From the IMG/VR virus record IMGVR_UViG_2917886563_000005: a stretch of 38,089 bases of DNA, one strand, 5' to 3'. A program made the translations under genes and the position numbers. Numbering within the stretch: position 1 is the stretch's first letter; each line of letters opens with the position of its first letter. This DNA is from a virus (taxonomy: Duplodnaviria > Heunggongvirae > Uroviricota > Caudoviricetes). The notes beneath the pieces were generated by a model. That model had not been told where the DNA came from. It was given only the letters and a program-made list of their open reading frames with translations, and did no database searches. This document shows, piece by piece, positions 1,041-36,102 of the stretch.

Positions 1041-2786
1041 GTGGGGATTTTTTTACTAGGCCGCAAGTTCGAAGGATCAAGCTTACTTTTTGATAAGGGA
1101 CGCTTATTTTTACAGAACAGCGTTGATGGAAATGTCTTCCTTGTAGTTGAGAAAGGAGGAAATCGAGCGTTTCTTCATACTGGTGAAAAATTTATAGATT
1201 TTGTTAGAGTTGGGCACTTGTCACATTTGAAATGCTATCTCTCACGTGAGAGCGACAGACTTTTATACTGCGTTTCATCATTAGGTGATGCTATTGAGAA
1301 GACAGTAACAGCAAACAGAACAAAAGCAAGTGGCTGGGAAACATTTGATATGCTTCCTGCAAAAGACTTAAGCGAATCATCCCTTAATCAAATAGAAATG
1401 CTTAAGGAAATATATTTTAAAAATGATGATTTAACATCTGTTTTCAACAGAATTGTTAGATCAGATTTGATTGACAAAGGAAGAACGATTGAAAAGCTAA
1501 TTGAAATAATGAGCGTCGACGATAAGACATATATCTCTTATCATCTATCTAAAAACATCAGTGAATTAGCAACGCTTTCTGATATTTCAGATGATGCGCT
1601 ATTTAAAGCATTTGTTTCAAACCTAACCAACTACAGCAAAAAAATATCTGTTATAGATGAAAAACTTGATTTTTTATCTAAGCTTTCGAACCAAATTATT
1701 TCTAAAAACAGCTGGATTGAACTAATTCATAATTTAAGAAAAATATCTCCACCAAAACATAAATCATGCATTGTTGCAACATGCAAAAATGAAGGTGTTT
1801 ATCTTATTGAGTGGATAGCTTACCATCTAAGCATTGGGTTTGATGCAATATTTATATATTCTAATGGTAATGATGATGGTTCTGACGAACTACTTAATAA
1901 TCTTCATAATGAAGGAATCATATACTACATAAAAAACATTGTTGGAGATGGTGTTAGTGCACAAAACAAGGCTTATGCTCATGCACTAACAATTAACAAG
2001 GAGGTTCTAAATTATGAATGGAGTCTTTTCATTGATATAGATGAATTTTTTGTTTTAAACGAATACATGTTTTCTTCCATCACTGATTATCTAGACTGGC
2101 AAAACAAAAATGAAACTGACGCAATTGCTTTAAACTGGATGTTTAGCAAACCAGTGGAAAATAGCGACTGGATAAACAATCCAATAACTAAAAGATTGCC
2201 ATATATTAATAAAGAAGCAAGCGCTCATATCAAAACATTTTTTAAGCCTCACAAATTCTCAGGCTCAACCCCTCATTTCCCATTGTGCAATAGCAATTAT
2301 AAGTTCGCATATAGAGACTCTTCAGGTAACATTCATGAAAAGTCCATCACAAAAAATGATTTATCATTTTCTAACAAACCACAAAACTCACACGCTTACA
2401 TTATTCATTACTTCAATAGAAGTATAGCTGAGTTTATTTGGAAATACTCTAGAAACAGAGGTAATCACCCAAATACAAAAAGCGGAAATAACTTTACAGA
2501 ACACTTATTTCAGTTCCTTGGCTTCTTCACATCATCATTAGACTCACCACGGTTCGTGGAGAATGAATCAATTGCTAAAATGACTGACATCATTGATTCA
2601 AAAATTAGCGAAATAGTAGCAAGCGAATCAATACAAATTGCGTATGAGAATGTTAAGAACAGGACAAGAGAGCGTTACGAATTAATCGAACCTTTATTTT
2701 GGGAGTATTTAAAGGGAAACATCAACTCAGAAAAACATAAAGACTCAATTTCAGATTTTATATCTAGATTTAAAGAAAAAGCCTAA
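1041..2786 (+). CDS. Cargo gene: 581-aa protein with N-terminal ~240-aa region of unknown function and C-terminal GT-A-fold glycosyltransferase-like domain; candidate lysogenic-conversion glycosyltransferase
   Basis: Motifs CIVATCKNEGVYLIEWIAYHLSIGFDAIFIYSNGNDDGSDELL and DIDEF look like GT2/GT92-type nucleotide-sugar transferases; visibly AT-rich versus flanks; GTG start at 1041 with GAGGGG 6 nt upstream (start uncertain, internal ATGs exist). Confidence 0.65.
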   Translation: MGIFLLGRKFEGSSLLFDKGRLFLQNSVDGNVFLVVEKGGNRAFLHTGEKFIDFVRVGHLSHLKCYLSRESDRLLYCVSSLGDAIEKTVTANRTKASGWETFDMLPAKDLSESSLNQIEMLKEIYFKNDDLTSVFNRIVRSDLIDKGRTIEKLIEIMSVDDKTYISYHLSKNISELATLSDISDDALFKAFVSNLTNYSKKISVIDEKLDFLSKLSNQIISKNSWIELIHNLRKISPPKHKSCIVATCKNEGVYLIEWIAYHLSIGFDAIFIYSNGNDDGSDELLNNLHNEGIIYYIKNIVGDGVSAQNKAYAHALTINKEVLNYEWSLFIDIDEFFVLNEYMFSSITDYLDWQNKNETDAIALNWMFSKPVENSDWINNPITKRLPYINKEASAHIKTFFKPHKFSGSTPHFPLCNSNYKFAYRDSSGNIHEKSITKNDLSFSNKPQNSHAYIIHYFNRSIAEFIWKYSRNRGNHPNTKSGNNFTEHLFQFLGFFTSSLDSPRFVENESIAKMTDIIDSKISEIVASESIQIAYENVKNRTRERYELIEPLFWEYLKGNINSEKHKDSISDFISRFKEKA

Positions 2787-30740: not shown

Positions 30741-31019
30741 TCAGGCCTCAAAACTGTTGCAGCAGTCTTGAGGCTTTTCTTTTGTCAGCACCTTGGCTAC
30801 TTTCTTTGCCAGTTCCGCCAATTCCTCGTCTTCAACACCCCACTCCAGCACAGCCAGAAGCATGGCCATCTTTGGGATAAAGCTGTCTTTCCATCGCGAA
30901 ATTTGCGATTCATTAATCCCTAACGCGTCGGCAACCTTTCGCTGACCACGTACAGCAATTCGATTTAGGATGTTGCTTGTAATTGCATTCGCTTTCTTGC
31001 GAGTACTTGTAAGTTGCAT
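30741..31019 (-). CDS. c1: C1 protein (lambda CII homologue), 92 aa
   Basis: ...ESQISRWKDSFIPKMAMLLAVLEWGVEDEE... is the CII-family HTH and tetramerisation region; start MQLTST with AAGGA upstream. Confidence 0.8.
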   Translation of the reverse strand: MQLTSTRKKANAITSNILNRIAVRGQRKVADALGINESQISRWKDSFIPKMAMLLAVLEWGVEDEELAELAKKVAKVLTKEKPQDCCNSFEA

Positions 31020-31076
31020 ATGTAAGTATTTCCTTAACAAATAAGAAGTTATACGCACCAACTGATGCGCGTTGTA

Positions 31077-31121
31077 TTCCCGCATTTCGGCGGGAATGAG
31101 GACCATGACTGTTAAAGAGCA
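31077..31121 (-). promoter_or_regulatory. nutR: boxA (31110..31121) and boxB hairpin (31077..31096) between cro and c1
   Basis: Minus strand reads TGCTCTTTAACA then uucccgc-cgaaau-gcgggaa. Confidence 0.6.
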
Positions 31122-31127
31122 ATTTGC

Positions 31128-31313
31128 TTATGCCGCTTTGCGATAAGCACTTTCTTGATACTTCAGGGCGCCAGCTGTAACGACTTCCAGTCGATAGGCG
31201 TCTTTCTCTGGGATGACTTCCTTCCACTGAGAGACTGCTGCATCGCTAATGCCTAACGCTTTAGCTACCGCACGCTGGGTTCCGAAGTGGTCGATAACAT
31301 CTTTCTTGTACAT
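31128..31313 (-). CDS. cro: Cro repressor (P22-type), 61 aa
   Basis: MYKKDVIDHFGTQRAVAKALGISDAAVSQWKEVIPEKDAYRLEVVTAGALKYQ... matches recalled P22 Cro. Confidence 0.9.
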   Translation of the reverse strand: MYKKDVIDHFGTQRAVAKALGISDAAVSQWKEVIPEKDAYRLEVVTAGALKYQESAYRKAA

Positions 31314-31327
31314 AGACTCGCTCCGAA

Positions 31328-31393
31328 ATTAAAGAACACTTAAATTATCTATCAAAGGAATCTTAAGTCAAGTTTATTTAAGATGTCTTAACT
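31328..31393. promoter_or_regulatory. Right operator region: three 18-bp P22-type operators (31328..31345, 31351..31368, 31376..31393) overlapping divergent PR (-35 TTGACT at 31366..31371, minus strand) and PRM
   Basis: Each site fits nnnnAAGnnnnCTTnnnn; the third abuts the c2 start codon, consistent with a leaderless PRM transcript. Confidence 0.7.
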
Positions 31394-32044
31394 ATGAATA
31401 CACAACTGATGGGTGAGCGTATTCGCGCTCGCAGAAAAGAACTCAAAATTAGGCAGGCTGCCCTTGGCAAGATGGTTGGCGTGTCTAATGTTGCTATTTC
31501 CCAATGGGAGCGTTCTGAAACTGAGCCCAATGGCGAAAACCTATTGGCCTTAGCCAAGGCTTTGCAGTGCTCCCCTGATTACTTGTTGAAAGGAGAAGAT
31601 AGTCTTTCAAACATTGCCTATCACAGCAGGCATGATCCAAGAGGTTCGTATCCTCTAATTAGTTGGGTAAGCGCAGGATGTTGGATGGAAGCTGTAGAGC
31701 CATATCATAAGCGTGCAATAGATAACTGGTACGATACAACCGTAGATTGTTCAGAAGATTCGTTTTGGCTGGACGTAAAGGGTGATTCGATGACGGCTCC
31801 AGCCGGTCTCAGCATCCCCGAAGGAATGATAATACTCGTCGATCCTGAAGTAGAACCTCGTAACGGGAAGCTTGTAGTGGCAAAGCTCGAAGGAGAAAAC
31901 GAGGCAACTTTCAAGAAGTTAGTTATTGATGCAGGCAGAAAGTTTCTAAAACCACTTAACCCACAATATCCGATGATTGAGATCAACGGGAACTGCAAAA
32001 TCATCGGTGTAGTTGTCGATGCAAAAATAGCAAACCTTCCATAA
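31394..32044 (+). CDS. c2: C2 repressor (P22-type, LexA-like autocleaving), 216 aa
   Basis: MNTQLMGERIRARRKELKIRQAALGKMVGVSNVAISQWERSETEPNGENLLALAKALQCSPDYLL... matches recalled P22 C2. Confidence 0.9.
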   Translation: MNTQLMGERIRARRKELKIRQAALGKMVGVSNVAISQWERSETEPNGENLLALAKALQCSPDYLLKGEDSLSNIAYHSRHDPRGSYPLISWVSAGCWMEAVEPYHKRAIDNWYDTTVDCSEDSFWLDVKGDSMTAPAGLSIPEGMIILVDPEVEPRNGKLVVAKLEGENEATFKKLVIDAGRKFLKPLNPQYPMIEINGNCKIIGVVVDAKIANLP

Positions 32045-32064
32045 GGGGCATTCGCCCCTTTTTT
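32044..32064 (+). terminator. Intrinsic terminator immediately after c2
   Basis: ggggc-attc-gcccc followed by tttttt. Confidence 0.6.
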
Positions 32065-32107
32065 CTTTCCTTTAAAAATCAAAGCAAAACTTAAGTCCCA
32101 CAATAAA

Positions 32108-32160
32108 ATTTAAGTTTTCTTCAAAACACCCTTGACCATTAATTAAAGAAATCTTAAATT
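32108..32160 (+). promoter_or_regulatory. Left operator/promoter: two clear operators (32108..32125, 32142..32159) and PL (-35 TTGACC 32132..32137, -10 TAAATT 32155..32160)
   Basis: Operators fit nnnnAAGnnnnCTTnnnn; promoter hexamers separated by 17 bp. Confidence 0.6.
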
Positions 32161-32206
32161 TAAGCCATCAGCAGGACGCTGGTAGCCAAACGGAACAGAT
32201 TGGCAG

Positions 32207-32247
32207 GCTCTTTAACATTGATGGGATTGTCCCGCCGAAATGCGGGA
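32207..32247 (+). promoter_or_regulatory. nutL: boxA (GCTCTTTAACA, 32207..32217) and boxB hairpin (32230..32247)
   Basis: boxB ucccgc-cgaaau-gcggga has the same sequence as the nutR boxB. Confidence 0.6.
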
Positions 32248-32361
32248 ACCAAAGAGTAGTTGGCTTTGGGGTGATGTGAAGTGCAGCAGCGCGACAGCAT
32301 CAGGGAGTTAACCTCCCTCCCCCCGTCACGTCACCGCTAAAGTCAATCATCGGAGGTCAAC

Positions 32362-32661
32362 ATGACAGTAGTCATTACATATCTGGCTGACGATAACGCC
32401 AGAAATCGCCGCAGAGCACGCAGACAGGCTCAACGTGAACAGGCAATGAATGAACAGCGACTGGCGCGGAAGATTGCGCTAAAGCTCTCTGGTTGCGTCA
32501 GAGCAGACAAAGCAGCATCACTTGGCAGCCTTCTCTGCAAGAAGGCAGATGAAGTCGAGCGTAAACAGAACCGTATTTACTACCGCAAGCCACGCAGCGA
32601 AATGGGTGTGACTTGTGTTGGTCGCCAGAAAATGAAATTAGGCAGCAAACCACTTATTTGA
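32362..32661 (+). CDS. N-like transcription antiterminator with arginine-rich motif, 99 aa
   Basis: N-terminal ARM DNARNRRRARRQAQREQ; first gene after PL/nutL; GGAGGT RBS; recalled as resembling phage 21 N. Confidence 0.7.
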   Translation: MTVVITYLADDNARNRRRARRQAQREQAMNEQRLARKIALKLSGCVRADKAASLGSLLCKKADEVERKQNRIYYRKPRSEMGVTCVGRQKMKLGSKPLI

Positions 32662-32669
32662 GGTGATAT

Positions 32670-32756
32670 ATGGAAGAAGAATTTGAAGAGTTCGAAGAGC
32701 ATCCGCAGGATGTGATGGAACAATACCAGGACTATCCGTATGACTACGACTATTGA
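32670..32756 (+). CDS. Tiny acidic 28-aa ORF (MEEEFEEFEEHPQDVMEQYQDYPYDYDY), not in the ORF track; speculative
   Basis: ATG 32670 preceded by GAGGTGA; overlaps ral start by 17 nt. Confidence 0.3.
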   Translation: MEEEFEEFEEHPQDVMEQYQDYPYDYDY

Positions 32757-32940
32757 TAAAAATCAATGGTGTGGACAATTCAAGCGATGCAATGGATGCA
32801 AGCTGCAATCGGAATGCATGGTTAAGCCTGAAGAAATGTTTCCTGTAATGGAGGATGGGAAATATGTCGATAAATGGGCAATACGAACGACGGCAATGAT
32901 TGCCAGAGAACTTGGTAAACAGAATAACAAGGCTGCCTGA
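32740..32940 (+). CDS. ral: Ral restriction-alleviation protein, 66 aa
   Basis: MTTTIDKNQWCGQFKRCNGCKLQSECMVKPEEMFPVMEDGKYVDKW... matches recalled lambda Ral. Confidence 0.8.
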   Translation: MTTTIDKNQWCGQFKRCNGCKLQSECMVKPEEMFPVMEDGKYVDKWAIRTTAMIARELGKQNNKAA

Positions 32941-33074
32941 TGGTGGCCTTTATTTTTGGCATAAACAACAGAATAAACACTGCACTGTGTATTCATTCCA
33001 ACGAGTGCATACACGGAGCAATGTCGCTCGTAACTAAACAGGAGCCGACTTGTTCTGATTATTGGAAATCTTCT

Positions 33075-33103
33075 TTGCCCTCCAATGTGAGGGCAATTTT
33101 TTT
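33075..33103 (+). terminator. Intrinsic terminator in the early-left operon (tL-like)
   Basis: ttgccctc-caatgt-gagggcaa followed by ttttttt. Confidence 0.6.
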
Positions 33104-33116
33104 GACGGAGTGAACG

Positions 33117-33365
33117 ATGATAAAAACTGATTATCCTGCAGAGCTTAAACAAAAAGTAATAACAGCAATTAAATGCTCTTTTATCTCATGTCGTACAGAT
33201 GAAGAACGATATGTCGTTGAGTGTGCAATTGTCGAGTTTCTCACAGCGATGGAATTTACCGCAGCAGAATCAATAGACGTATTAAAGCAATCGGACGGAA
33301 ATGATATTGAAACAGATGATGTTATTGACCGACTAATAAAATCATTCGAAGAAGAAATAGAGTAG
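33117..33365 (+). CDS. Hypothetical acidic 82-aa protein
   Basis: ORF with GGAG upstream; no recognised domain. Confidence 0.45.
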   Translation: MIKTDYPAELKQKVITAIKCSFISCRTDEERYVVECAIVEFLTAMEFTAAESIDVLKQSDGNDIETDDVIDRLIKSFEEEIE

Positions 33366-33448
33366 CCGCCTGAGCGCGGCTTTACCGCATACCAATAATG
33401 CTTCACGAGAGGCATTTTCGTTATGCAATCAAATATAAGGAGTTACCC

Positions 33449-33583
33449 ATGATGCACTTTCAGCTCGCGGGTAGCGGCGTCATGTCCGCTTTCTACCCGC
33501 ACGAATCTGAATTATCACGCCGAGTTAAACAATTAATCAGAGCAGCAAAGAAACAACTGGAGGCGTTATGCGCAATGAAATAG
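33449..33583 (+). CDS. CIII-like small protein (44 aa from ATG 33449)
   Basis: AAGGAG 6 nt upstream; central helix ESELSRRVKQLIRAAKKQL resembles the lambda CIII core by recollection. Confidence 0.5.
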   Translation: MMHFQLAGSGVMSAFYPHESELSRRVKQLIRAAKKQLEALCAMK

Positions 33584-33720
33584 CCATTAATCACCAGATG
33601 CTTCGTGCTGCACAAAACAAAGCAGTAATAGCCAGATTTATTGGTGATTCCAAAATGTGGCTTGAAGCAAATAAAGCGATGAAATCAGCTATCAACCTTC
33701 CATGGTATCGCAGGAAATGA
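33568..33720 (+). CDS. Kil-like small protein (50 aa), not in the ORF track
   Basis: ...ARFIGDSKMWLEA... resembles the lambda Kil FIGD-KM motif as recalled; located between cIII-like gene and recombination genes. Confidence 0.4.
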   Translation: MRNEIAINHQMLRAAQNKAVIARFIGDSKMWLEANKAMKSAINLPWYRRK

Positions 33721-33824
33721 GTTTTACAGATAACTGGTCAGACGAAGAATTCATTCGTCAGATGAACAAAATGCTCAATCAGCACAAAGAACAGGAGAAA
33801 GATGATGATTCTGACTCTGAATGA
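33717..33824 (+). CDS. Possible 35-aa ORF (ATGA-coupled), speculative
   Basis: ATG overlaps the upstream stop; acidic C-terminus; overlaps the next gene by 23 nt. Confidence 0.25.
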   Translation: MSFTDNWSDEEFIRQMNKMLNQHKEQEKDDDSDSE

Positions 33825-34113
33825 TAAGCGTGAAATATCGCAAATAATCGCAAGTTTTACTGATGAAGATTACGAACGAATCAACAGTGAAGTTGATCGC
33901 CTCTGCAAACGTTGCGACCCAATAAGCGAAATGCTTCGCTCATATAAACCAGATGAACACACTAAGGACGCTATCGACTGGCTGGAAGATGATGACTGTA
34001 ACTATCAGGAAAAAGCCGCTGAATGGTTCTGGGATGCAATAACCGAAAGAGTTAAGGCTGAATATGCCTTCGCAATATTCAAACGCAGACACATTTATGG
34101 AGAAGCAGCATGA
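33802..34113 (+). CDS. Hypothetical 103-aa protein upstream of recT
   Basis: AGGAG RBS; translationally coupled to recT (ATGA overlap). Confidence 0.5.
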   Translation: MMILTLNDKREISQIIASFTDEDYERINSEVDRLCKRCDPISEMLRSYKPDEHTKDAIDWLEDDDCNYQEKAAEWFWDAITERVKAEYAFAIFKRRHIYGEAA

Positions 34114-35012
34114 GCAATATCGTTGAATTCGTTAAACAGCAGGAGCAGTTATTCTGCGGAGCATTGACTGAACAGACGGTGACATGGGCTAAGGAAAGCC
34201 AGTTTGCAATTCAGTATTTCCAGAAAAACGATTACCTGGCTAAAACAGCACTGGCAAACCCAACCAGCGCACAGAACGCCATCATCAATGTTGCGGCGAT
34301 CGGCATCACCTTAAACCCGGCCAGCAAACTTGCTTATCTAGTTCCGCGCGACGGCATGGTTTGCCTTGATATCAGCTATATGGGATTACTTCACCTTGCG
34401 CAATCGACAGGTTCAATTAAGTGGGGGCAATGCAAACTGGTGTACTCAAACGACACCTATGAATCAAATGGCCTTGATTCAGCACCAACCCACAAATACA
34501 ACGCATTTGGTGAGCGAGGCTCTATTGTTGGTGGTTATTGCACGGTTAAAACAGCAGATGGTGACTACCTGACTGAAGAAATGAGTCTGGCAGAAATTAA
34601 AGCAGTGGAAGCAACGAGCAAGGCAAAGAATGGACCGTGGAAAACATTCTGGGAAGAGATGGCGCGTAAAACAATAGTTAAACGCGCCAGCAAATACTGG
34701 CCTAAAGCCCAGCGACTGGATAATGCCATTCACCTGCTTAACGAAGATGAAGGTATGCATCAGGAACCAGTTATGCCGCAGAAATCAGAGGAAGATATCC
34801 ACGAAGATGAACGGAAACGCCAGCAGGAAATAACGGATAAAGCACAACTTCTTTGTGATGAAATGGCCCAGGCTGAAAACATGGATGATTTGAAGCGATA
34901 TTTTGCAGAAGCATATCGCCTGACATCTGGAATGAAATTGCAGCAGAACGTACAAGCCATTTACATAGAATGCAAAGCGAAACTGGAGGTTGCCAGTGAG
35001 CAAACTATATGA
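34110..35012 (+). CDS. recT: RecT-family single-strand annealing protein, 300 aa
   Basis: ...NGPWKTFWEEMARKTIVKRASKYWP... matches the conserved RecT motif. Confidence 0.8.
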   Translation: MSNIVEFVKQQEQLFCGALTEQTVTWAKESQFAIQYFQKNDYLAKTALANPTSAQNAIINVAAIGITLNPASKLAYLVPRDGMVCLDISYMGLLHLAQSTGSIKWGQCKLVYSNDTYESNGLDSAPTHKYNAFGERGSIVGGYCTVKTADGDYLTEEMSLAEIKAVEATSKAKNGPWKTFWEEMARKTIVKRASKYWPKAQRLDNAIHLLNEDEGMHQEPVMPQKSEEDIHEDERKRQQEITDKAQLLCDEMAQAENMDDLKRYFAEAYRLTSGMKLQQNVQAIYIECKAKLEVASEQTI

Positions 35013-35478
35013 AATAGCCAATGAATACGCAAAATTGATGGATTCAGATTTAGAGCCAGAGATGATTGCTGACACAATAGAAGGCATGGAAGGAGAATTT
35101 ACCGATAAAATAGAGCAACTTCTCGCCATTATTAAAAATGAATCTGGTTATGCTGAACGCCTCAAGGACGAGGCAAAGTCACTGAATGAACGAGCCGCAG
35201 TAATTCAAAATAAGATTGACAGCATTATGGCGTATATAGCGTCATCGCTTGAAATGGTTGGCAAGAAAAAGATTCGAGCAGGTATCCACCAGGTAACAAT
35301 CCGCAAACCGTCAGAAACTGTAGAAATCATCGACTCAAGCGCCCTTCCTCAAGAATACGTTGAGTTTGAAACGACAATTAAAGCCGACAAACTGGCAATC
35401 AAACACCAACTAAAAGCAGGAATAAATATCCCCGGCGCTCAACTCAAAGTTGGGAAACCTTCACTTCTTATCAAATAA
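34996..35478 (+). CDS. Hypothetical 160-aa coiled-coil protein downstream of recT; possibly Gp157-like
   Basis: GTG 34996 with GGAGG 6 nt upstream; family assignment is from memory only. Confidence 0.45.
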   Translation: MSKLYEIANEYAKLMDSDLEPEMIADTIEGMEGEFTDKIEQLLAIIKNESGYAERLKDEAKSLNERAAVIQNKIDSIMAYIASSLEMVGKKKIRAGIHQVTIRKPSETVEIIDSSALPQEYVEFETTIKADKLAIKHQLKAGINIPGAQLKVGKPSLLIK

Positions 35479-35489
35479 CGGTATCGCCT

Positions 35490-35804
35490 ATGAAAAAGAC
35501 TCCATGGGAGAAATGGGAAGTCGATTTCTTGCGCGAAGTAGCGGCGACAATGCCAGTTGAAGTTATCGCTGAAAAACTGGAAAGGACTGAAAAAGCAGTA
35601 ATGGCGAAAGCAACAAGGATTGGCGCTGACATTGTTAGCCGACTTCGTGGAAGACGATGGACAAGAGCCGAAGTATCACTTTTCGGTAAGTTCTCCGCAG
35701 AAGAAATAGCAATTGCAACCTGCCGCTCAATTTATTCAGTAAGGGCTATGCGATACAAGCTAAAAAAACTCGATGAAAAAAGAGCAGGCATACAAATAAA
35801 TTAA
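35490..35804 (+). CDS. Hypothetical 104-aa protein with two internal ~40-aa repeats (possible tandem HTH-like modules)
   Basis: Repeats WEKWEVDFLREV...IAEKLERTEKAV and RRWTRAEVSLFGKFSAEEIAIATCRSIYSV seen in translation. Confidence 0.45.
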   Translation: MKKTPWEKWEVDFLREVAATMPVEVIAEKLERTEKAVMAKATRIGADIVSRLRGRRWTRAEVSLFGKFSAEEIAIATCRSIYSVRAMRYKLKKLDEKRAGIQIN

Positions 35805-35820
35805 CATGGAGTAATTAACA

Positions 35821-36102
35821 ATGAAGCTAAACATCGACCTCGGTAAATACGTTATTACTGGAACAAAACACGACCTGATTCTTAATGAAAGAGGAATTAT
35901 CAAAGAAGGTGAGAATGCAGGGAAAGAAACACTAAGCCGTATCGGTTATTACAGCAAGTTTGAGCATCTGGTCAAAGAGTTATGCAACCGTGAAATCCTG
36001 TTATCTCAGGCGCAGACGCTACAGGATATTCAGCAGCATATCGAAACTTTAGGTATGTCACTTAGCATGGCTATTGACCAGTTCGTGGAGAGTAAATCAT
36101 GA
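35821..36102 (+). CDS. Hypothetical 93-aa protein
   Basis: ORF in operon orientation; no recognised domain. Confidence 0.45.

Follow-up and report, generated by a model that had tools for sequence, protein, structure and literature searches.

Comparative evidence for three very small protein-coding genes in the N-ral-cIII-kil region of a P22-like Escherichia coli phage

Which of the very small open reading frames (ORFs) that lie between the N-like gene and the recombination genes of a lambdoid phage are genes? This question is raised by a stretch of 38,089 nucleotides (nt) from IMG/VR virus record IMGVR_UViG_2917886563_000005 (Duplodnaviria; Heunggongvirae; Uroviricota; Caudoviricetes), which is called the window here. 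An earlier note on this DNA, made from the letters alone, had proposed three candidates in the N-ral-cIII region: an ORF of 28 amino acids (aa), a 50-aa Kil-like ORF, and a 35-aa ORF adjoining the latter. We read all three from the sequence on the + strand, at 32670..32756, 33568..33720, and 33717..33824, respectively. In the same region, N, ral, and cIII were assigned by phrog_271, phrog_1055, and Pfam PF08134, respectively. The 28-aa ORF is called orf28 below, as in phage lambda, and the 50-aa ORF is called kil.

We found that the three frames are very probably real protein-coding small genes of the N-antiterminated pL operon, and that all of them are already on record. Short ORFs are so common in this region (88 ORFs of at least 20 aa overlap the 5 kb of 31000..36000) that presence alone means little, and only comparative evidence separates genes from noise. 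The earlier note had named loss of the frames in homologous regions as the result that would speak against its proposal; all three frames are conserved across such regions. The abundance of short ORFs would fit the idea that one or more of the three is a chance ORF without coding role, and so would the fact that no NCBIfam model matches any of them. However, frame-specific purifying selection and retention of the ORF across diverged relatives were found for all three frames, and we regard chance as highly improbable. In addition, an Rfam scan of 31000..35500 gave zero family matches, and thus no sign of a structured RNA that would account for the conservation.

The observation made in the earlier note is therefore correct and its interpretation is supported, but the features are not new. 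The exact peptides are already in the lambda reference annotation (orf28), in UniProt and in routine annotation by the Prokaryotic Genome Annotation Pipeline, PGAP (Kil), and, for the 35-aa ORF, under the name 'hypothetical protein' in at least 1000 contigs; by itself the observation adds little. Two points weigh against the coding role of orf28 and the 35-aa ORF. In the two RefSeq E. coli genomes that were checked, PGAP has annotated neither, although matches to the 1.85-kb stretch of this region were found, as mosaic pieces, in 2297 of 5426 complete E. coli genomes and in 391 phage records. Meanwhile, a literature search, within the papers that could be reached, gave no report of translation or function for either of them. 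It should be noted that the peptides are very short, and their relatives were gathered through a 40-aa extended form, exact-sequence look-ups, and DNA patterns.

The first of the three ORFs, orf28, starts with ATG and has 28 codons. In its peptide, MEEEFEEFEEHPQDVMEQYQDYPYDYDY, 12 residues are acidic and 7 are aromatic, and Lys and Arg are absent; the earlier description of it as highly acidic is apt. The ORF also follows directly after the N-like gene, as had been noticed, and its Shine-Dalgarno (SD) sequence overlaps the N stop codon. The GAGG core of this SD ends 6 nt before the ATG, and the SD was rated strong. Among 35 distinct upstream contexts of orf28, most contained GAGGTGA or AAGGTGA, and a few contained GAGATGA or GAGGTTA. 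At its 3′ end, orf28 overlaps the start of ral (32740) by 17 nt. All 28 residues are identical to those of lambda orf28 (lambdap47, NP_040623.1; 34271..34357 of NC_001416), where the 17-nt overlap with the ral start is also seen, and the window peptide matches phrog_16060 over its full length. Furthermore, the annotation of lambda imm434 gives orf28 its own ribosome-binding site, and exactly this peptide has been recorded in 182 contigs.

To follow its conservation, orf28 loci were gathered through their Ral protein, which gave 204 loci. orf28 was present upstream of ral in about 200 of them, including Salmonella-, Providencia-, and Kluyvera-type relatives, and it was retained, with in-frame insertions and deletions, even where Ral was only 60-92% identical to the reference used. 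The P22 version has three differences from the window, all of them synonymous; the Providencia version reads MEEDIEEFDEHPDDDMRQYQDYPYEYDY, and the Kluyvera version is a 23-aa form with in-frame deletions and a GTG start. In the exceptions, orf28 had a premature stop (one locus) or an N-terminal deletion (one locus), or was absent next to the Ral homologue (one locus). In a fourth flagged locus orf28 was intact, and the flag was due to a misplaced Ral match. In another sample, which was collected through orf28 itself, 135 of 135 copies adjoined ral or a ral remnant and lay directly upstream of it.

The sequence changes among these copies point to selection on the peptide. There were 40 distinct DNA versions of orf28, and in codons 2-19, the part that overlaps neither ral nor the ral SD, the minimum changes at the three codon positions were 7, 4, and 25. 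The pooled ratio of non-synonymous to synonymous polymorphism (pN/pS) was 0.20, and that of ral in the same genomes was also 0.20. The ratio was 1.2-2.7 in four other frames of the orf28 region (1.8-2.2 in the other forward frames) and 0.30 in the reverse frame with coinciding wobble positions. That reverse frame contains stops, and a reverse-strand gene beneath orf28 was rejected. The value of 0.20 is indirect support for translation, and these substitution patterns show that orf28 is under selection, with purifying selection equal to that on Ral. On the other side, the SD, the start codon, and the first codons of ral place a further constraint on the C-terminal third of orf28. In addition, a CRISPR interference screen of lambda (PMC10695390) lists orf28 as hypothetical and non-essential; a delta-orf28-ral deletion is its only other mention in the literature search described above.

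In at least 13 loci, ral is inactivated by a frameshifting internal deletion or a nonsense codon, and orf28 is intact. A recurrent out-of-frame deletion, equivalent roughly to 32773..32892 of the window, removes most of ral and joins two GGRCAAT repeats. Deletions were seen in L287, L289, L335, L369, L371, L378, L497, L498, L574, L583, and L592, and a nonsense codon in L404 and L549. A tblastn search of the phage collection with orf28 gave no matches, presumably due to the low-complexity filter, and loci anchored on ral or on DNA patterns were used instead. A second scan of contigs with a Ral alignment gave no new relatives, and most of its matches were 100% identical lambda DNA in unrelated taxa. 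Such lambda-identical Ral/orf28 DNA was present in draft genomes of Pseudoxanthomonas, Nocardioides, Shewanella, Paenibacillus, Kitasatospora, and others (L007-L022 and L199-L210), on contigs that are often about 48.4-48.5 kb long or else short and of low coverage. This looks like contamination of the assemblies with lambda DNA.

What could a peptide of this kind do? Translation of orf28 would begin from the strong SD that overlaps the N stop codon and would end inside ral, and ribosomes terminating on orf28 might feed the ral start. Most likely, in our opinion, orf28 acts with Ral on type IA restriction-modification enzymes. It would then be a working microprotein, serving either as a partner of Ral or as an acidic decoy.

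A competing explanation is that orf28 acts in cis only, as a leader or coupling ORF that sets the amount of Ral, and that the released peptide is functionless. In one version of this explanation, the acidic run MEEEFEEFEE, together with HP and YP, would lead to aborted translation by intrinsic ribosome destabilisation, or else to EttA-sensitive pausing, and the translation of ral would then depend on Mg2+ or energy state. The described triggers of ribosome destabilisation, acidic runs near the N-terminus with occasional prolines (PMC9718836, PMC12673854, bioRxiv 10.1101/2021.02.02.429294), agree with it. So does the arrangement of the two genes: orf28 ends 14 nt inside ral, the ral SD (AGGA) and ATG lie within orf28, and orf28 was never found apart from ral. 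Furthermore, a predicted RNA hairpin at 32744..32774, with a core of 9 base pairs (bp) (ACUAUUGAU/AUCAAUGGU), spans codons 2-12 of ral together with the stop codon of orf28; the z-score of the 141-nt fold is -2.4. E and D are freely swapped at the acidic positions across the homologues, which indicates that charge and not residue identity is conserved there. However, the aromatic residues, H11-P12, and M16 are as strictly conserved as the acidic positions, which argues against a mere charge run, and a pN/pS equal to that of ral fits a folded or binding peptide better. In addition, ral has its own SD, and orf28 is intact in the loci with a broken ral, though these could be recent events. Weighing both sides, we consider action in cis alone somewhat unlikely, and joint action of the peptide with Ral is the reading we prefer. 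As a separate observation, a shorter, 5-bp version of the hairpin can be drawn by eye in the Providencia homologue.

The second ORF is Kil of the HK022/HK97 type, judging from family membership and identity, so the earlier label 'Kil-like' can be made firmer. It has an ATG start, 50 codons, and GGAGG upstream, and it overlaps the end of cIII by 16 nt. The score against the Pfam model Lambda_Kil (PF06301) was 72.6 bits, above the curated cut-off of 27.6. The peptide is identical to HK022 Kil (UniProt VKIL_BPHK0, WP_001243355.1), which is also the PGAP name, and it is on record from at least 1000 contigs. Its identity to lambda Kil is 57% over a 30-aa core. Lambda Kil stops FtsZ from assembling, and this inhibition depends on ZipA (PMC3961180). 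Because of the family membership and the core identity, the Kil of the window would be expected to block FtsZ-ring assembly as lambda Kil does.

The third ORF has 35 codons and adjoins kil in the way that had been claimed: its ATG overlaps the kil TGA (ATGA). A longer, 40-aa form from an ATG at 33702 exists, and that start is not conserved in other genomic contexts. At the other end, the last 20 nt overlap a 102-aa gene, whose SD and start both lie inside the 35-aa ORF. The idea that a programmed frameshift fuses the two was dropped, as no slippery motif was seen in the overlap. The peptide matches phrog_17766 over residues 1-32, and 10 of 14 family members match it as well. The family shows the motif W/M-S/T-D-E-x-F-x-R-x-M and a variable acidic tail. 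AlphaFold2, run on the single sequence, placed one helix at residues 9-30, with a predicted local distance difference test (pLDDT) value of about 93 for residues 11-20, and left the acidic tail loose. The peptide is predicted to be one amphipathic helix (W7...L20) with a disordered acidic tail.

Two main versions follow an identical Kil, the 35-aa form and a 52/56-aa form (phrog_2123; 83 aa in HK97, where it is annotated as gp42.1). Their codons 1-16 are nearly base-identical and then diverge. The acidic 35-aa tail pairs with the 102-aa gene and RecT in 71 of 71 loci, and the longer forms pair with gp42 and Erf. In Salmonella phages, the same 28-residue core stands behind two other genes, joined by ATGA, and one of these phages has a different module after the core. 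In all, the core was seen after three different upstream genes, always with the ATGA overlap. Phages with a Kil that is 65-93% identical carry diverged members (for example MNSKSPRDMTDAQFARLLKDLGVPVKIPEPVKEES, MSQQKPVKEWSDEAFVRLMKDLIVGKKQPQKESS, and MSIADTWTDDAFIRLMQDMLNQQKEQENDDDSDSE), in which the motif is conserved and codons are swapped synonymously (CGT/AGG for Arg and TTA/CTC for Leu). In the loci collected, 214 ORFs begin at the stop codon of Kil, and the motif [WMF]-[ST]-[DE]-x-[EQA]-F occurred in 202 of them. In P0103 and P0104 (E. coli and Salmonella), a 7-residue unit inside the helix of the small ORF, KEFIRQM, is duplicated in tandem and in frame, to two or three copies. We saw nothing to support the PHROG label 'recombinase' for phrog_2123/1723.

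Selection on the 35-aa ORF is weaker, with a pN/pS of about 0.45. Over the 15-codon core, pN/pS was 0.44 in 24 distinct DNAs, and it was 0.54 outside the motif used for selection of the sequences. The set collected by pattern is biased to synonymous change inside the pattern, so the overall ratio of 0.31 was not used, and the estimate comes from the kil-anchored family and from sites that the pattern does not cover. Of the six frames, that of the 35-aa ORF is the only one free of stops. A number of findings pull in the other direction. Close-range polymorphism looks nearly neutral, with about 4 synonymous to 13 non-synonymous changes; a W7C variant is present in 715 contigs; and the ORF has a stop codon in one locus and a frameshift in another (Cedecea). 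The sole SD-like sequence that this ORF has in the window (AGGA) ends 1 nt before the ATG. Finally, an exhaustive single-sequence search of 1.8 billion proteins gave only 7 representative clusters at E <= 0.001. We concluded that the 35-aa ORF is a real small gene, though a weakly constrained one. In Cedecea colo (L034, about 1650..1760), the post-kil ORF is split by a 1-nt deletion (GACGAG-AAGCC), with protein similarity on both sides, which points to a pseudogene of recent origin or else to an error in the sequencing.

Most likely, in our view, ribosomes reinitiate on the 35-aa ORF after kil, and its product serves the recombination module as an accessory factor. Ribosomes terminating at the kil UGA would restart on the overlapping AUGA, and the peptide might assist the module that it heads. 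The window version could instead be a by-product of mosaicism, either functionless or merely passing ribosomes from kil to the next gene. Its first 16 codons would then be an N-terminus of the HK97 gp42.1 type that travels with cIII-kil and was fused to the leader of the 102-aa gene, open by chance. The near-identity of codons 1-16 in the 35-aa and the 52/56/83-aa HK97 types with abrupt divergence after them, and a tail that is set by the stretch in which the downstream gene has its SD and start, speak for such an origin. The near-neutral polymorphism, the W7C variant, the occasional stop and frameshift variants, and the few relatives in the protein search count on the same side. However, residues 1-28, and not only 1-16, are conserved in the Salmonella phages behind two other genes and before a different downstream gene, and the diverged form MSIADTWTDDAFIRLMQDMLNQQKEQENDDDSDSE keeps the length, the helix, and the acidic tail. 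Furthermore, where DNA identity is low and codons are swapped synonymously, the family motif is still present, and the frame is the only stop-free one of six. Mosaicism is a serious rival for this 35-aa version, and on this evidence we regard it as unlikely.

The position of the ORF recalls Arf of phage P22, which enhances phage-mediated homologous recombination (as cited in PMC12315714). In a BLASTP comparison of the 35-aa peptide with Arf, 12 residues were aligned with E = 0.005 for the single comparison, and a public record of a metagenome-assembled genome names an HK97-type relative 'accessory recombination function protein'. However, the 35-aa peptide had no match to Pfam PF17585 even at E <= 10, where P22 Arf itself scores 121 bits. 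The window peptide had no phrog_2445 match, and 1 of 14 family members matched that family (E = 0.006). In hhalign, the probability for the 35-aa family against Arf was 21%. Membership in Arf was rejected on the results for PF17585, phrog_2445, and hhalign.

A wider reading of both small ORFs is a tentative possibility, well short of an even chance. With orf28, the Ral system may gain its missing second half, by either of two routes. By the one, orf28 would act in trans as an acidic microprotein, jointly with Ral, on HsdM/HsdR of type IA enzymes, as a mimic of DNA in miniature or of a partner. By the other, it would be a sensor that uses its acidic nascent chain (ribosome destabilisation of the EttA type) to gate the translation of ral. 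Either route, if true, would give a function to a lambda ORF left unexplained in the reference annotation. As a second possibility, the 35-aa peptide may found a wider Arf-like family of recombination accessory helices. Apart from these readings, the analysis had two by-products: quantitative evidence for lambda orf28 as a selected protein-coding gene tied to ral, and a conserved small-protein family at the boundary of kil and the recombinase module. Thus, orf28, an old and ignored ORF in the best-studied phage, is now a reasonable experimental target, and of the leads found here only this one merits an experiment.

The window represents an E. coli phage or prophage of the P22-like (Lederbergvirus) type, and its structural genes are about 95% identical to those of phage IME10. 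The part from 31394 to 35012 on the + strand is a typical lambdoid early-left (pL) operon with the order N - orf28 - ral - 82-aa gene - cIII - kil - small ORF - recombination module (Table 1). Terminator-like hairpins are present at 32929..32950, 33075..33096, and 33397..33416, in agreement with an operon that needs N for read-through. The last two bracket the 82-aa gene, which is without a Pfam or NCBIfam match and is named hypothetical by PGAP.

Table 1. Positions and assignments of the features in the early-left region of the window
Feature	Position	Strand	Assignment or remark
CI-type repressor	31394..32044	+	
N antiterminator, phage 21/933W type	32362..32661	+	phrog_271, E = 7e-36; named N in related phages
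SD of orf28, GAGGTGAT	32660..32667	+	read from sequence
orf28, 28 aa	32670..32756	+	identical to lambda orf28; phrog_16060, E = 7e-19
ral (restriction alleviation), 66 aa	32740..32940	+	phrog_1055, E = 2e-49; PGAP 'antirestriction Ral family protein'
82-aa acidic gene between ral and cIII	33117..33365		phrog_14587, labelled 'anti-restriction protein'
cIII, 44 aa	33449..33583	+	Pfam PF08134, E = 2e-30; annotated CIII in Kapi1 and HK97
kil, 50 aa, HK022/HK97-type	33568..33720	+	Pfam PF06301, E = 1.7e-20; phrog_2055, E = 1e-35
35-aa ORF	33717..33824	+	phrog_17766, E = 5e-16; Kapi1_014 in phage Kapi1
102-aa gene	33805..34113	+	phrog_3486; SD AGGAG at 33793..33797
RecT	34110..35012	+	after the 102-aa gene

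Compared with known phages, the orf28 of the window has the same length, sequence, 17-nt ral overlap, and SD type as that of lambda. However, it comes directly after a phage 21-type N gene, whereas in lambda and P22 it comes after sieB. A comparison of window 32576..32669 with lambda (L004, 2359..2420, minus strand) and P22 (L005, 2975..3025) showed that upstream of orf28 these two phages still have part of a phage 21-type N gene, namely its 3′ end (TTTACTACCGC...CCACTATTT), which has lost about 60 nt. This remnant suggests that the order N-orf28-ral is older and that sieB and the resident N came by module exchange. In lambda, kil likewise lies in the pL operon just after cIII and overlaps the cIII end; lambda Kil has 47 aa compared with 50 aa in the window, and the termini differ. 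The P22 'Kil' (62 aa, phrog_2394) belongs to another PHROG family than the Kil of the window (phrog_2055).

The 35-aa ORF is like HK97 gp42.1 (phrog_2123) in its first 16 codons, in the ATGA junction with kil, and in its place ahead of a recombinase, but gp42.1 is longer and has a different C-terminal part after residue 16. In HK97 (L196, 1501..1752), gp42.1 reads through into gp42, and in most relatives (L415 and others) the ORF comes to an end at 52 or 56 aa and the homologue of gp42 is read in another frame; thus, HK97 differs from them by a frame change. Unlike P22 Arf, the 35-aa family occurs also with RecT, RecE, and ATPase-type modules, and not with Erf alone. We do not file the ORF as Arf and regard it as the positional counterpart of Arf and possibly a remote relative. 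P22 Arf (47 aa; PF17585, phrog_2445) is likewise a small acidic protein in the slot between kil and the recombinase gene, it overlaps the kil end, and it has the motif SDEEFI in common with the 35-aa family.

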